Shown: positions 11,927 to 18,044 of the stretch, piece after piece | How positions within the stretch are numbered: position 1 is the stretch's first letter | How the letters are laid out: each line of letters opens with the position of its first letter | From: a virus | Taxonomy: Duplodnaviria; Heunggongvirae; Uroviricota; Caudoviricetes | Virus record (IMG/VR): IMGVR_UViG_3300022699_000502 | Span: 64,001 to 82,044 of that record | Direction: 5' to 3' (one strand) | Length of the DNA stretch: 18,044 nucleotides | The notes under the pieces: model-generated | What the model was told of the DNA's origin: nothing | Database searches by the model: none | What the model saw: the letters and a program-made list of their open reading frames with translations, nothing else | Position numbers and translations under genes: made by a program

Positions 11927-11930
11927 ATCG

Positions 11931-13130: not shown

Positions 13131-13529
13131 ATGATGAATGATAAGGAAATGAGACAACTGCTAGAAAAGCTAAACAAATTGATTGATGAAAGAGAAACAA
13201 GTAATGGTTCCCTCTCAAAAGTGGAGGTATCTTTAGGTAAACTTGAAACTAAAGTAGAGAATATTGAAGAAAAACAAGGCGATTTAAATGACCGTGTTAA
13301 CCAGATTTTAGGATACTTCAATGATCCCGCAAGAGAATCTGCTTCATTACGAGAACACATTGCTAACTGTCCTGCCAGAGACTTCTATGAATCTAAAGAA
13401 AGCATGACAACTAAACCTGAAATGTATGAAGGATTGCAAAAATCCTTGATAATAAAAATGTTATTGATAAACGGCGGCATGATGGTACTGGTTGTTGCCT
13501 TGGCGGAATTATTGATGATGATGATGTGA
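13131..13529 (+). CDS. Coiled-coil protein with a C-terminal transmembrane anchor (XhlA-like architecture)
   Basis: Heptad segment LSKVEVSLGKLETKVENIEEKQGDLNDRV and hydrophobic C-terminus MLLINGGMMVLVVALAELLMMMM. Confidence 0.6.
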   Translation: MMNDKEMRQLLEKLNKLIDERETSNGSLSKVEVSLGKLETKVENIEEKQGDLNDRVNQILGYFNDPARESASLREHIANCPARDFYESKESMTTKPEMYEGLQKSLIIKMLLINGGMMVLVVALAELLMMMM

Positions 13530-13534
13530 TTGAT

Positions 13535-15199
13535 ATGCCTTATGAAAATGAACATGCGTGTAGGTTACAAAACCCTGATAAATATAATCAGTTTAGAAGA
13601 GTTAATAATGATATCGAAGTTGGTGGTAAAAAAGCCGATGCAATATACGGTATAAATGGTGATACCGCTGAACTCCAAGCTGTTAGATTTAAGACGGATA
13701 AATTCACGGAGAATGAAGCACACAATTGGTGTAGAAACCATAACGGAACATTTGAACCGGCTTCAAATAATGAAGGTAATAAAATGAAAAATACACAAGA
13801 TAAAATTTTTAAAAATAAAGCAGTTCCTACCCATACACCAGATATGCTAGACGACGAATCGTGGGATGGAGATAATGCAGTTGATAACTTAAGACAATGG
13901 GCAAGTAACGACGGATCCGGTGATAAAGAAACTATTGATTGGGATGATTACAAATACGGATTCGGATGGTATAATGATAACGAACCAGAAAATTTCACCT
14001 CTTATAAACTACCACACCACAAAGTAGTAAACGGGGAACTTAGGACATCCAAACAAGGTGTGTATGCTGCGGCAGCTGCTGTTGAAGGCGCTCGAGGTGG
14101 TATAGATATATCTGATAGTCAGTTGGCAGATGTAAGAGACCACTTAGAAACGCACTATTCACAGATGGACGAAGATCCACCTTGGCGTGAAATGCAAGAT
14201 GAATATGTTTGTGAATGTCTAGAATGTGGACATATTGTAGAATCTGAAGAACATTGTAAAGATATAAAGTGTCCCGAATGTGGAGGACAAATGAGAAGAC
14301 TTGAAAGACCTGGTGAAGGCCGACATGAACAAACCGATAATTTCTATCTATTGAAACATTGGTGGAAAGGTCAATTTGTTGTTAAATGGGGTCCGTCTAA
14401 AGAACATTGGGACTTATTTTATAACGGTAAACAAATAGTACTTGATAGCAATCCATTAGAATCAAATGAGATGGGTACCGCAATACGCGAACCATACACA
14501 AACGACTTTGAGAAAAAGGGTTCTAATGGACCTGAATATATTGAACCAGGTACACCTGGAAATCCAACGAAGGATACGTCATGTTGGGTTGAAAGACTTG
14601 ATGAGGGTACAATCAACGTCGAAATAGACACGGAAACCAAAAAAGTATTTAGTATCAACGGAGAAAATCTGACCGACACATGGGTACTAGAAAGAGAAGA
14701 TGAAAATACTAATCTTTGGGTTATGAAAAAGCAGGAACAACACAGTGAACTACAACAACATGAACTCAGCTGCGATACACCTGTTGAAATAGAACTCATG
14801 GAAATGTTACCAACAGGTAACATGAAAATAGAAGGGTGTATATTGGGTGAAGGTGTCTGGAACGGATATTTCTGGCCCGGGGACGTAGTAAAAGAAGTCG
14901 GTGAAGAAGCTATCGAAAATCTTAAAATAGAAGTTGGACCTGACCACGAAGATAAAATCACTGACGCAGGTGAAGTGATAAACTATCAGTGGGATGACCA
15001 CAAAAAAGGTTGGCATATCGAAGCAATAATCGATAACAAAGAAGCGATCGAACGTGCACAATCGTTAGAAGATCCTGGGTGGTCTATCGAAGCAACTGCA
15101 TATAGTGACAACGTAAGAAACATAATAAAAGAAATAACAGATCTTAAATCTGCGGTACTAGTAAGAGTCCCTGCATGTAAGACCTGTTATGTATCGTGA
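13535..15199 (+). CDS. Multidomain putative prohead (capsid maturation) protease
   Basis: The C-terminal ~125 aa have the HK97-type layout: candidate His in GPDHED (14945), candidate Ser in GWSIE (15083), ending SAVLVRVPAC. Upstream domains are PYENEHACRL..ELQAVRF..WC, SYKLPHH..GARGGIDI..HLETHY, a Zn ribbon and a KHWW..HWDL segment. The gene lies upstream of scaffold and capsid. Confidence 0.7.
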   Translation: MPYENEHACRLQNPDKYNQFRRVNNDIEVGGKKADAIYGINGDTAELQAVRFKTDKFTENEAHNWCRNHNGTFEPASNNEGNKMKNTQDKIFKNKAVPTHTPDMLDDESWDGDNAVDNLRQWASNDGSGDKETIDWDDYKYGFGWYNDNEPENFTSYKLPHHKVVNGELRTSKQGVYAAAAAVEGARGGIDISDSQLADVRDHLETHYSQMDEDPPWREMQDEYVCECLECGHIVESEEHCKDIKCPECGGQMRRLERPGEGRHEQTDNFYLLKHWWKGQFVVKWGPSKEHWDLFYNGKQIVLDSNPLESNEMGTAIREPYTNDFEKKGSNGPEYIEPGTPGNPTKDTSCWVERLDEGTINVEIDTETKKVFSINGENLTDTWVLEREDENTNLWVMKKQEQHSELQQHELSCDTPVEIELMEMLPTGNMKIEGCILGEGVWNGYFWPGDVVKEVGEEAIENLKIEVGPDHEDKITDAGEVINYQWDDHKKGWHIEAIIDNKEAIERAQSLEDPGWSIEATAYSDNVRNIIKEITDLKSAVLVRVPACKTCYVS

Positions 15200-15204
15200 T
15201 ATAA

Positions 15205-15603
15205 ATGGATCTGGAACACAAATTTAAAGACGCGATCTGCGGTGTCTCGATAGAGAAAAAAACGCGGTCTAAGCTAGGGTTAAGAGCAAGACCTTGGGTT
15301 GAAATCCACACATCAAATCATAAAGCGAGACAGATCAAATACGAACTACTAAATTACGGTATTAACGCAACAGTCAACAACGATGGCGTCAGAATCCAAG
15401 GCATAACTAATTGCGACATGATAACGAGATTCTTCGATCCGCCTAAATGGTGGCAGCAGGCGATGAATATGTTCCGCAACAAAGACCACCTGGATAAAGA
15501 AGGCATGTTAAGAATAGTTCAATTAAGATCGAGAAATAGCGATCGAACCGTATCAAAATGGACGATCAAAAAAGTCGTTGAGACATTGAACAAAAATGCA
15601 TAA
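15205..15603 (+). CDS. Degenerate single-domain LAGLIDADG homing-endonuclease-like protein
   Basis: GVSIEKK..KLGLRARPWVEI, ITRFFD and KDHLDKEGMLRIVQLR match the layout of LAGLIDADG_1 proteins. The catalytic helix is reduced to FKDAICG. Confidence 0.65.
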   Translation: MDLEHKFKDAICGVSIEKKTRSKLGLRARPWVEIHTSNHKARQIKYELLNYGINATVNNDGVRIQGITNCDMITRFFDPPKWWQQAMNMFRNKDHLDKEGMLRIVQLRSRNSDRTVSKWTIKKVVETLNKNA

Positions 15604-15604
15604 A

Positions 15605-15621
15605 CCCAAAAACTTTTTATA
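15605..15621 (+). promoter_or_regulatory. Possible promoter P4 (CCCAAAAAC-TTTTTATA) pointing into the hairpin element
   Basis: BRE-like CCAAAAAC like P1/P3, then TTTTTATA at 15614-15621. The predicted start (~15644) coincides with the 5' end of the stem. Confidence 0.5.
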
Positions 15622-15643
15622 CATCCTATCACATAAGTATTAG

Positions 15644-15804
15644 TGCAACACCACCAAGGAGTTAGGGGTTCTTTTCCCTTTCTCCATACTAGCGCAAAAT
15701 TACCGAAATGCTAACCGGCAGGGTCACTATAGCTAAGTAGCCGTCAGAATATCTCGCAGTTTAGGAGGACGGAGAAGAAACCCATCCTCCCTTTTGGTGT
15801 TGTG
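15644..15804. ncRNA. Candidate structured non-coding RNA, ~160 nt rod-like hairpin
   Basis: Hand-folded nested helices: 15644-15653/15795-15804, 15656-15661/15787-15793, 15666-15677/15771-15783, 15680-15685/15764-15769, 15688-15694/15755-15760 and 15716-15719/15740-15743. The element is intergenic and flanked by promoter-like elements on both strands. Confidence 0.5.
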
Positions 15805-15811
15805 TGTATGT

Positions 15812-15846
15812 TTTATATACCTGTTGTTCTATTTAAATGTTTTGGA
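15812..15846 (-). promoter_or_regulatory. Reverse-strand viral promoter P5 (TCCAAAACA-TTTAAATAG-N9-TATATAAA)
   Basis: The reverse complement of 15829-15846 is identical over 18 nt to 11931-11948. The downstream TATATAAA lies at the same 9 nt spacing (15819-15812). The predicted start is ~15808-15810. Confidence 0.72.
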
Positions 15847-15862
15847 CACATTCGCGGACTAA

Positions 15863-15899
15863 TGTCCTACCCTCCCCATAACATTTAAATAGTAGGACA
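15863..15899 (+). promoter_or_regulatory. Promoter P6 (CCATAACA-TTTAAATAG) enclosed by an 8 bp inverted repeat TGTCCTAC/GTAGGACA
   Basis: TATA at 15884-15891, inverted-repeat arms at 15863-15870 and 15892-15899. It lies upstream of the scaffold-cement-capsid genes. Confidence 0.6.
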
Positions 15900-15925
15900 C
15901 CGATAGGTTTAAATAGGTGAACTAC

Positions 15926-16813
15926 ATGGGACAATCCCTCGCCGAGTACCCCCTTCCTGAAGAAAACAAACCGATGAAAGTGAGTGCCAGTGAACTCGAT
16001 TCTGTAGTCCTTATTTCAAAGGGTTATGAATCTGATGATACCATGCAAGACGGTGATATTTCAAGTGAAGTTCAAGGGCTTGCAGAGAAGTTGGGGGTAA
16101 AGGAGTCTAGTGTTGAAAGTTTACTGACTCCTTTATTCATGCAAGATTCTTACCCTATGCCGGATGGTGAAGAACCGATGAAGGTAGAGGCAGGAGAACT
16201 AGAGTACGTAGTACTTGCTCCGAAAGGATACGAGGGTTACCCTCAAACTGAAGGAGGTATGCAAATGACTGAAGAAGATGAAGAAGTTACTGAGGAGGAT
16301 CAAAATATGTCCGAAGATTCACAAGATCAAGAGCTTTCTGAGATGAAAGAGGAGGTCAAAAAGATGACACAGAAAAGCGAAGAACTGAAATTAGAAAACG
16401 AACAATTGTCAGAGAAAGTCGAGGAGTACGAAAACTCCGTTAGTGATTACGAAGAAAAAGTGGAACAGTTAGAACAGGAAAAGCAGGAATTACAAGACAA
16501 AGTCGATGAATACGAAGAGATGCTTGAGCAGAAAGAGAAGTCTGAGAAAAGACAACTTGCTGAAGACATAATGGAAATTCGTGAAAAGAAAGGTCTCGTA
16601 GATGAAGATTGTGATTGTGAACAAAAATTGAGTGAATTAACAGAGATGCCAAAAGATGCATTAAAGGCGATACTACAGGACTTAAAAGAAGTTAGTGAAA
16701 AGCTTTCCGAACCACAACCGAAAGTTAAAGAGAATGTGGAAGAGGAAGAACATAAAAACAGTGATGAAAAGAAAGAAGCTCTAAGAAAAGAGCTTTTCGG
16801 TGATAGAGAATAA
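15926..16813 (+). CDS. Capsid scaffolding protein
   Basis: ATG 15926 after AGGTGA (GTG 15917 is the alternative). Very acidic, with a long heptad coiled coil (LKLENEQLSEKVEEYENSVSDYEEKVEQLEQEKQELQDKV). Directly upstream of cement and capsid genes. Confidence 0.75.
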   Translation: MGQSLAEYPLPEENKPMKVSASELDSVVLISKGYESDDTMQDGDISSEVQGLAEKLGVKESSVESLLTPLFMQDSYPMPDGEEPMKVEAGELEYVVLAPKGYEGYPQTEGGMQMTEEDEEVTEEDQNMSEDSQDQELSEMKEEVKKMTQKSEELKLENEQLSEKVEEYENSVSDYEEKVEQLEQEKQELQDKVDEYEEMLEQKEKSEKRQLAEDIMEIREKKGLVDEDCDCEQKLSELTEMPKDALKAILQDLKEVSEKLSEPQPKVKENVEEEEHKNSDEKKEALRKELFGDRE

Positions 16814-16854: not shown

Positions 16855-17217
16855 ATGTCTGCAGGAGATATAGATTACGAATTCAGCCTTTGGGTTAAAA
16901 GCGGCACAGCAAACGCTTCAATAACCGCAGGTGATATCGTATATAACGGTGGAGACGGATGGATACCCGCTGACGGCAGTTATAGTGGTCAGCCAATTGG
17001 TGTTGCAAATGCGGATGCAGATTCTGCATCTTCGTTCGCGATTATCAGATCAGGTGTTGTATCCGTTGCAAAGGCAACAGGAACTGCTACAGTAGATGGT
17101 ACAGAAGTTGATTTGACTAGTGGTGAAGTAGAAGAAGGTGGAACAACAACTCCAAATGCATTTGTTGTTGAAGCCACAGCAAGCGACGCTGAAGAAGTGC
17201 AAATTTATCTAGTCTAG
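16855..17217 (+). CDS. Capsid cement/decoration protein (DUF2190-like)
   Basis: 120 aa with ITAGDIVY..PIGVA..A..IIRSGVVSVAKATG pattern, located between scaffold and major capsid genes, with AGGTGA upstream. Confidence 0.7.
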   Translation: MSAGDIDYEFSLWVKSGTANASITAGDIVYNGGDGWIPADGSYSGQPIGVANADADSASSFAIIRSGVVSVAKATGTATVDGTEVDLTSGEVEEGGTTTPNAFVVEATASDAEEVQIYLV

Positions 17218-17228
17218 AGGTGATATGA

Positions 17229-18044
17229 ATGGGTAAACTAGTTGTTAGAGACGATTTGTCAGATCCGATGAAGGCTGAAGTAATACTGGAAGAAGTCTAT
17301 AGAGAAGTGAGAGCATCATATAATTTAAGAGAGGCTTGTAGAGTAATTGGTACGGGTGAAGCATTAAATATTGAGATTCCACTTGTAACCCAGAGAGTAT
17401 CTGGTCAGCAAGATGTGCCTGAATTAGAAGAGGCTGAGATCTCAAGTCAAGCTTATAGTCACATTTCATCCAAGTTACACAAGAATGTCGTACACATAGC
17501 ATTGTCCAGAGAAGCACAGATGGAAGCTAAACAAGATATATTGTCGATGCATGTACAAGATGCAGGTCAAGAGATCGGTAGAATGGAGAATGCAGAGATC
17601 GCTGATGAGTTTAGCGCATTAGACAGTAATAGCGGCAGCGATTGGTCAGCATCCAATGATCCGTTCGACGACATAATGACAGCTGCAACCACTGTACGTG
17701 AAAATGGATATGAACCAACACAATTGTGGATGGAACCGGGTGTTTATTCCGCGTTAGTATCCAACGATGACATACTTGACAGGCTCGAAAGAGGTGCTAC
17801 AGCAGACGGTCAGTTAGGAACCATAGCTGGTTTTGATATAAGACTTGATCAGGAACTACCTGATGGAGAAGCATATCTGATCGATCCAACCGCACCAGCA
17901 TTCGTGCTGTTCGATGGTCCAGAATGGATATCTGAATATAGTTCAGATACAGCATTCTATGATGGTTATATCATAGCGGACTTCCTCGGATTAGAGACAG
18001 TATTACCAAATGCTGCGTATAGGCTGACTGATCTATTAGGTTAA
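17229..18044 (+). CDS. Major capsid protein, HK97-like fold
   Basis: 271 aa with IEIP..VPELEE..KLHKNVVHIALSRE..DIL..IGRMENAEI, DPFDDIMTA..V..GYEPTQLWMEP and GTIAGFDIRLDQELPDGEAYLID. GAGGTGAT upstream; the stop is at the window end. Confidence 0.85.
   Translation: MGKLVVRDDLSDPMKAEVILEEVYREVRASYNLREACRVIGTGEALNIEIPLVTQRVSGQQDVPELEEAEISSQAYSHISSKLHKNVVHIALSREAQMEAKQDILSMHVQDAGQEIGRMENAEIADEFSALDSNSGSDWSASNDPFDDIMTAATTVRENGYEPTQLWMEPGVYSALVSNDDILDRLERGATADGQLGTIAGFDIRLDQELPDGEAYLIDPTAPAFVLFDGPEWISEYSSDTAFYDGYIIADFLGLETVLPNAAYRLTDLLG

Follow-up and report, generated by a model that had tools for sequence, protein, structure and literature searches.

Two facing promoter-plus-leader modules appear to form a palindrome, possibly a hairpin RNA unit, upstream of the head genes of an archaeal tailed virus

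An uncultured soda-lake archaeal tailed virus carries an imperfect palindrome of 161 nt directly upstream of its scaffold, decoration and major-capsid genes. Judged by their sequence, the two arms of this palindrome are paralogous promoter-plus-leader modules in convergent orientation. We tentatively favour the reading that the palindrome is the junction of these two face-to-face modules and is transcribed to a hairpin RNA of about 200 nt. On this best reading the element is a transcription unit without a gene, specific to its lineage and placed in a variable slot, with the hairpin seen in one virus only.

Results

Genomic setting of the palindrome

The window analysed here is a stretch of 18,044 nt that forms the final 18 kb of an 82-kb IMG/VR virus record; coordinates refer to the window unless the record or another contig is named. 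The record encodes a terminase, a portal protein, a 2069-aa tape measure protein and fibre proteins, and ends in genes for a scaffold-like acidic protein, a decoration protein and an HK97-type major capsid protein. Among GenBank phages the sole named relative is Halogranum tailed virus 1, whose capsid protein is 28.5% identical, and no DNA match was found in that collection. GTDB genomes searched with the capsid alignment yielded no provirus, so that the search gave no handle on the host. Scanning IMG/VR with single proteins (the 132-aa, scaffold and capsid proteins) returned nothing. A capsid search produced ten proteins, the alignment of which led to eight contigs, and an alignment of the upstream 557-aa protein added three more informative contigs. 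These relatives originate from soda-lake sediment metagenomes. Relatives closer than these are represented by the capsid proteins P0002, P0003 and P0004, at 87%, 67% and 63% identity.

The palindrome follows a gene for a 132-aa protein (15205..15603, plus strand, stop codon at 15601-15603), and precedes the gene for an acidic coiled-coil protein, the probable scaffold (15926..16813, plus strand). The genes of the decoration protein (16855-17217) and the major capsid protein (17229-18044) come next, in agreement with the head-module location given in the original prediction. The 132-aa protein has no match in Pfam or PHROG and its function is unassigned. The ORF at the matching position in contig L009 shares 30% identity with it (E 6e-20); it aligns with ORFs of 127-155 aa at the matching position in seven relatives, and is a syntenic member of the head block in eight relatives at 25-45% identity. 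This conservation and synteny argue that the gene is not a mobile homing-endonuclease insert.

Upstream of the 132-aa gene lies the gene for the 557-aa protein (13526-15199), which is of mosaic composition. The first ~220 residues from its N terminus occur very widely, with matches in 4919 representative proteins (E<=0.001) and in 300 IMG/VR loci, and are followed by a zinc ribbon (DUF7129, below the cut-off), while its C-terminal domain of ~290 residues is also found fused to much longer proteins.

The palindrome folds into an unbranched rod on either strand

The palindrome (15644..15804) gives a rod-like hairpin on both strands. Its minimum free energy (MFE) is -55.0 kcal/mol with 51 pairs on the plus strand (z -3.83; 0 of 200 dinucleotide shuffles as good) and -57.6 kcal/mol with 53 pairs on the minus strand (z -3.47; 0 of 200 shuffles as good). 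The hairpin first proposed is thus real on both strands, and the count of about 45 pairs given for it was slightly low. In each case the fold is a single rod without branches. Its outer two thirds are common to the MFE and centroid structures, which differ over the apical ~40 nt (15704..15745), a poorly paired part with no significant match in the L008 intergenic region or in the rest of the 82-kb record. G-U pairs had been thought somewhat more frequent on the plus strand; they number five there and four on the minus strand, and the arm-versus-arm alignment contains six mismatches of T/G type (G-U on plus) against five of A/C type (G-U on minus), near-equal counts that indicate no real strand bias. 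Most interruptions of the rod are symmetric loops of the substitution type.

When all 160-nt windows of the 82-kb record were scanned, the region was one of the few most stable given its GC content, at ~3 sd under the GC-adjusted mean for the minus strand, and ranked second for pairs common to both strands; similar values occur elsewhere, including inside the capsid gene, and the hairpin region is not a unique outlier. Real and unusual as it is, the fold on its own is not overwhelming. The example inside the major capsid gene (17541-17700, record 81541-81700) forms a rod on both strands at -49.4 and -42.2 kcal/mol, with 51 and 48 centre-spanning pairs, and calls for caution about the frequency of rods in this genome. 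On the minus strand, no 160-nt window of the record folds more stably (about -3.75 sd) than one in a GC-rich island in AT-rich DNA at record 42940-43250 (L006:2940-3250). This island holds several copies of a palindromic TGCGAAAATTCGCA-like box, which make it a candidate operator or iteron array, or a structured RNA.

The hairpin region is non-coding, as its longest ATG frame has 13 codons, with an SD-like GGAGG directly abutting the AUG. At the gathering score no Rfam family matched anywhere in the window, and at E<=10 within 15400-16100 just two chance-level matches appeared (rli26 and the TMV pseudoknot), both far under their thresholds. The covariance models of 6S RNA (RF00013; gathering score over the window and E<=10 in 15400-16100) and of the phi29-type packaging RNA (RF00044; window and 15400-16100) gave no match, and a search for tRNA and tmRNA found none. 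The earlier statement that no known family could be recognised accordingly stands. Motifs of the C/D box, H/ACA and bulge-helix-bulge kinds were considered and dropped by eye, as was an attC-like reading, in which the AAC...GTT ends match only as those of any such palindrome would.

An orphan promoter points into the rod from the minus strand

A BRE/TATA-like core of 13 nt recurs across the record, and at most of its copies an ATG follows 25-45 nt downstream in the correct orientation, which identifies the core as the working archaeal-type promoter of the virus. Four matches with at most one mismatch are present in the window, against 0.12 expected. A promoter of this kind (15811..15847, minus strand; BRE/TATA core at 15829-15847 and a second AT-rich box at 15811-15819) points into the rod, which confirms the minus-strand copy of the viral promoter noted in the original prediction. 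It matches the promoter at 11930 without a difference over 19 nt and over the second 9-nt box, with 84% identity over 37 nt overall, and its 13-nt core is perfect (13/13), one of just five mismatch-free copies in the 82-kb record. No ORF lies behind it; the sole downstream ATG frame is the one of 13 codons. Because the ATG frame 25-45 nt downstream that accompanies most copies is absent, this promoter was classed as an orphan. The geometry of the other copies predicts a transcription start at ~15806-15808, 2-4 nt outside the stem.

The orphan promoter is divergent from the scaffold-gene promoter (15876..15899, plus strand), with which it forms a 24-nt inverted repeat. A GGACA...TGTCC palindrome between these divergent promoters (15822-15899) may be a shared operator. 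Another pair of promoter cores standing face to face, ~58 nt apart, occurs in the promoter hub at record 38973-39060, which makes convergent promoter copies a recurring feature of this virus.

On the opposite side of the rod, a weak BRE/TATA-like element (15605..15621, plus strand; TTTTTATA at 15614-15621) corresponds by position and homology to an L008 promoter of consensus sequence. It shows five differences from the 13-nt core by eye and was absent from the record scan at <=2 mismatches. The TATA assigned to the hairpin on this strand consists of ATA preceded by the T5 of an A5-C-T5 tract (15608..15618), which follows just after the stop of the 132-aa gene and is a candidate back-to-back oligo-T terminator. 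A T-run right after the stop of the equivalent gene is present in L008 and L009 as well, making the tract at least as likely a terminator of the upstream operon as a TATA box. The convergent-promoter geometry of the original prediction is credible, since the minus-strand promoter is consensus and the plus-strand site corresponds to the position of the L008 consensus promoter.

Archaeal RNA polymerase terminates at oligo-T tracts. The T5 on the plus strand is hence a candidate terminator of the upstream operon, and the T5 on the minus strand a candidate terminator of the hairpin RNA. Both stand without an adjoining stem, and a simple terminator scan of 15100-16100, which looks for a short GC-rich stem and then a T-run, found no such hairpin-plus-T-run site. 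From the promoter geometry and the T5 tract we infer both ends of a predicted non-coding RNA of ~200 nt on the minus strand (15608..15807), comprising a 5' tail of ~5 nt, the rod and a 35-nt tail ending in U5, which folds at -60.4 kcal/mol (z -2.98; 0 of 200 shuffles). The hairpin is probably transcribed as this minus-strand RNA, and perhaps a complementary plus-strand RNA arises from the weaker plus-strand module.

The arms of the rod resemble two modules that flank a gene in a relative

The leader of the plus-strand module forms the 5' arm on the plus strand (15644..15703), and that of the minus-strand module forms the 5' arm of the minus-strand RNA (15746..15806). Aligned with each other, the two leaders are identical at 41 of 57 positions (72%) in an almost gap-free alignment (z 6.0; 0 of 500 shuffles). 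The leader motif is limited to four promoter-proximal sites in this virus and its relatives examined, and a search of IMG/VR with the promoter-plus-leader pattern returned the L008 contig only.

L008, whose capsid protein is 57% identical to that of the virus, carries counterparts of both modules. Window positions 15605-15665 align with L008 137-198 at a local score of 35, which was reached by none of 1000 shuffles. The minus-strand promoter with the first ~25 transcribed nucleotides scores 42 against L008 (0 of 1000 shuffles), and the minus-strand leader alone, with promoters removed, resembles the L008 minus-strand leader located 5' of an 86-aa gene (z 3.0; 2 of 500). An extended palindrome including the promoters was rejected in this form, because the promoter parts of the two modules are no more alike than shuffles (1060 of 2000).

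The slot in L008 reads, in order, the upstream stop, a T5, the consensus plus-strand promoter, a hairpin of ~50 nt with a U-tract, and a minus-strand ORF. The promoter and the hairpin/U-tract RNA occupy 137-235 on the plus strand; the ORF encodes an 86-aa membrane protein with three helices, has its promoter just before the scaffold promoter and, with its structured 5' leader, occupies 290-680 on the minus strand. In L008, then, ~400 nt separate the modules, a short hairpin/U-tract RNA and a membrane-protein gene lie between them, and no rod is present. A fold-back between the 5' and 3' parts of the L008 mRNA was sought and is not in the MFE structure. The 86-aa protein gave only sub-threshold Pfam matches (Bax1-I, YLATT) and has no match or trace in the 82-kb record. 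To the left of the slot just 36 codons of the adjoining gene are visible, for which reason the orthology of that gene is weak. In its layout the L008 slot is reminiscent of the type I toxin-antitoxin loci of prophages or of a small holin-like moron.

Here the modules lie ~45 nt apart rather than ~400 nt as in L008, and the rod results from this proximity, as a transcript across both modules would carry one leader together with the complement of the other and fold back. The leader pair of the window is far more alike than that of L008 (z 6.0 versus 2.6), which fits maintained pairing or gene conversion. A duplication of more recent date, gene conversion between the nearby inverted repeats or selection on pairing could each account for it.

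The rod is seen in one virus among those compared

The gene order 557-like, 132-like, scaffold, decoration and capsid is conserved in the relatives, and the content of the gap between the 132-aa gene and the scaffold gene differs among them. This gap before the scaffold gene measures 322 nt in the window and 631 nt in L008. In the seven relatives more distant than L008 (L009, L011/L012, L014, L015, L019, L020 and L022) it is 0-155 nt long and contains the scaffold promoter only, with no hairpin. The minus-strand ORFs noticed in L020 are shadows of the plus-strand scaffold and decoration genes and not inserts.

None of the eight relatives compared, which share the gene order, has the rod, so that there is neither conservation nor compensatory change among them, and no basis for a covariation test. 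Of the marks of a structured RNA that the original prediction named, an unusual folding energy is present, and conservation and compensatory change in related contigs are not. Searches with a covariance model built from the rod sequence alone gave no match across 342 kb of loci and three whole records, exact 20- or 21-mers of either arm occur nowhere in IMG/VR or in 185,579 species genomes (GTDB), and the 82-kb record contains no second copy of the rod.

Discussion

Among the features that argue for the reading of the palindrome as a junction of facing modules and a source of hairpin RNA are the homology of both flanks to the L008 modules, the orphan consensus promoter with its second box, the fold statistics on both strands and the close match of the arms. 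Against it weigh the lack of the rod in every relative compared, the balanced mismatches and symmetric loops, the similarly strong folds at other places in the record, the negative outcome of the terminator scan and the weak orthology of the gene to the left of the L008 slot. In the mechanism that we propose, transcription from the minus-strand promoter would start near 15807 and run through its own leader and then through the complement of the opposing leader, whereupon the RNA would fold back into a rod of ~53 pairs. The transcript would stop at the U5 tract (15612-15608) to give a non-coding RNA of ~200 nt made with the late genes, and the weaker plus-strand module might add a fully complementary RNA. 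Should this reading hold, the chances would be perhaps evenly balanced that the unit acts in cis as insulation at the boundary of two late operons. Together, the facing promoters, the T5/A5 tract and the stable hairpin RNA in antisense orientation would then stop read-through of the upstream operon from entering the head genes, and the same three parts would keep antisense transcription out of the upstream 132-aa gene. Such cis-insulation needs no trans-acting role.

The main rival, doubtful in itself and nearly as likely as the cis-insulation role, is that the palindrome is a neutral relic, left either when an L008-like cassette lost its gene by deletion or when the leader was duplicated in inverted form by a replication template switch. 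It would be a decaying palindrome, perhaps transcribed, without a function of its own. The balanced G-U and A-C mismatches, the symmetric substitution-type loops and the absence of the hairpin from eight of eight relatives do give it the look of decaying DNA, and L008 has a gene between the homologous modules. Moreover, the plus-strand promoter has drifted from consensus, and the RNA shows no target complementarity above chance in the 82 kb (best antisense match E 0.6). Decay sits poorly, however, with a minus-strand promoter that has kept both its second box and one of the five perfect cores of the record, and with arms matched much better than the L008 pair. Loss of an L008-like gene would also have to be reconciled with a record that holds no trace of the 86-aa ORF.

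An RNA acting in trans appears improbable. Under this alternative an abundant, late, rod-like RNA would bind a host or viral protein, either as a decoy, comparable to adenovirus VA RNA, for a defence factor that binds RNA or duplexes or as a cofactor of head assembly or packaging. A consensus late-type promoter, a stable rod and the adjoining scaffold and capsid genes would all suit such an RNA. Against it, nothing in Rfam matches even at E 10, no strand asymmetry is seen, and the element occurs in no relative although the head genes are common to them, which is unexpected for an assembly cofactor. With a length of ~160-200 nt and an imperfect long hairpin, the rod is like 6S RNA and adenovirus VA RNA I, a likeness in shape only. 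6S RNA mimics an open promoter for the sigma-70 holoenzyme through a large central bubble between closing stems. In the rod the weak pairing is apical rather than a central bubble closed on both sides, and with archaeal BRE/TATA promoters in the virus a sigma-70 decoy would be without a target; together with the silent RF00013 model, this leaves the 6S-like RNA polymerase decoy, one of the functions first suggested, without support. The packaging-RNA idea fared no better, the rod being unbranched and without a match to RF00044, and no support was found for a replication primer.

Still less probable is an element working at the DNA level, that is, an inverted repeat that forms a cruciform or binds protein and acts as a replication origin or as a packaging or recombination site. 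The palindrome is equally good on both strands and is positioned between gene blocks, as such an element might be. Folded as DNA, it gives just -22.4 kcal/mol (z -2.15; 3 of 200 shuffles as good), a weak fold that makes a cruciform unlikely, and with 28% mismatch between the arms extrusion is disfavoured. The terminase gene, at 47.5 kb of the record, is distant, relatives with the same gene order lack the palindrome, and the palindrome contains no iterons, with a likeness to the promoter-hub iterons that is not above chance. A promoter-hub iteron (39.4 kb of the record) split in the apex (GCGCAAAAT ... CGGCAGGG) was considered and rejected, as its chained-seed score fell below the shuffle mean plus noise; the best chain of any apex-iteron comparison reached only p 0.06.

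A MITE inserted in the intergenic gap is scarcely credible and already largely refuted: for all its long terminal inverted repeats (41/57), its non-coding length of ~160-240 nt and a site that differs between relatives, the record contains no further copy, no exact 20- or 21-mer occurs in IMG/VR or the 185,579 species genomes, no target-site duplication is seen at either plausible boundary, and the supposed terminal repeats are the promoter-leader modules shared in situ with L008.

The gene-less transcription unit of our best reading has partial parallels among known phage elements. Phage morons, a concept from HK97 and HK022, are independent promoter-gene-terminator units between conserved structural genes. 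Like a moron, the unit has its own promoter and a candidate T-tract terminator on the opposite strand between conserved late genes, and occurs in a slot filled in some relatives only, with differing content. Unlike a moron it is gene-less, and unlike the described ones it is bounded by two convergent paralogous promoter-leader copies. The prophage loci bsrG/SR4 (SPbeta) and txpA/RatA (skin) are type I toxin-antitoxin systems with convergent RNAs overlapping at their 3' ends. They resemble our element in its putative convergent promoters a few hundred nucleotides apart and its predicted, strongly structured RNAs, and in L008 a gene for a small hydrophobic protein additionally stands opposite a short RNA. 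No toxin ORF is present in the window, just the 13-codon frame, and the 86-aa protein of L008 is larger than typical type I toxins; we claim no membership of this class, and we know of no experimentally shown type I toxin-antitoxin system in archaea. In the temperate coliphages 186 and P2, switches of convergent promoters with repressor operators control divergent lytic and lysogenic operons. The window resembles them in having two facing promoters whose transcripts would be fully complementary across the gap, and differs in that both promoters are copies of one late-type promoter and neither transcript need encode anything. General modelling of convergent-promoter switches that work by transcriptional interference and cis-antisense is available (PMC4519249).

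If the palindrome is only a relic, the analysis is still useful in that it removes a high-scoring candidate; a trans-acting decoy or an assembly or packaging cofactor, if true, would be the first in an archaeal tailed virus. The comparison with L008 offers a worked example of remodelling in a variable slot between late genes, in which two module copies bracket a small gene in one virus and abut as a rod in another, and so illustrates a route by which such elements can originate. In archaeal tailed viruses, non-coding RNAs have hardly been explored, and a predicted stable hairpin of 200 nt behind an orphan copy of the virus's strongest promoter provides a concrete and cheaply testable candidate.
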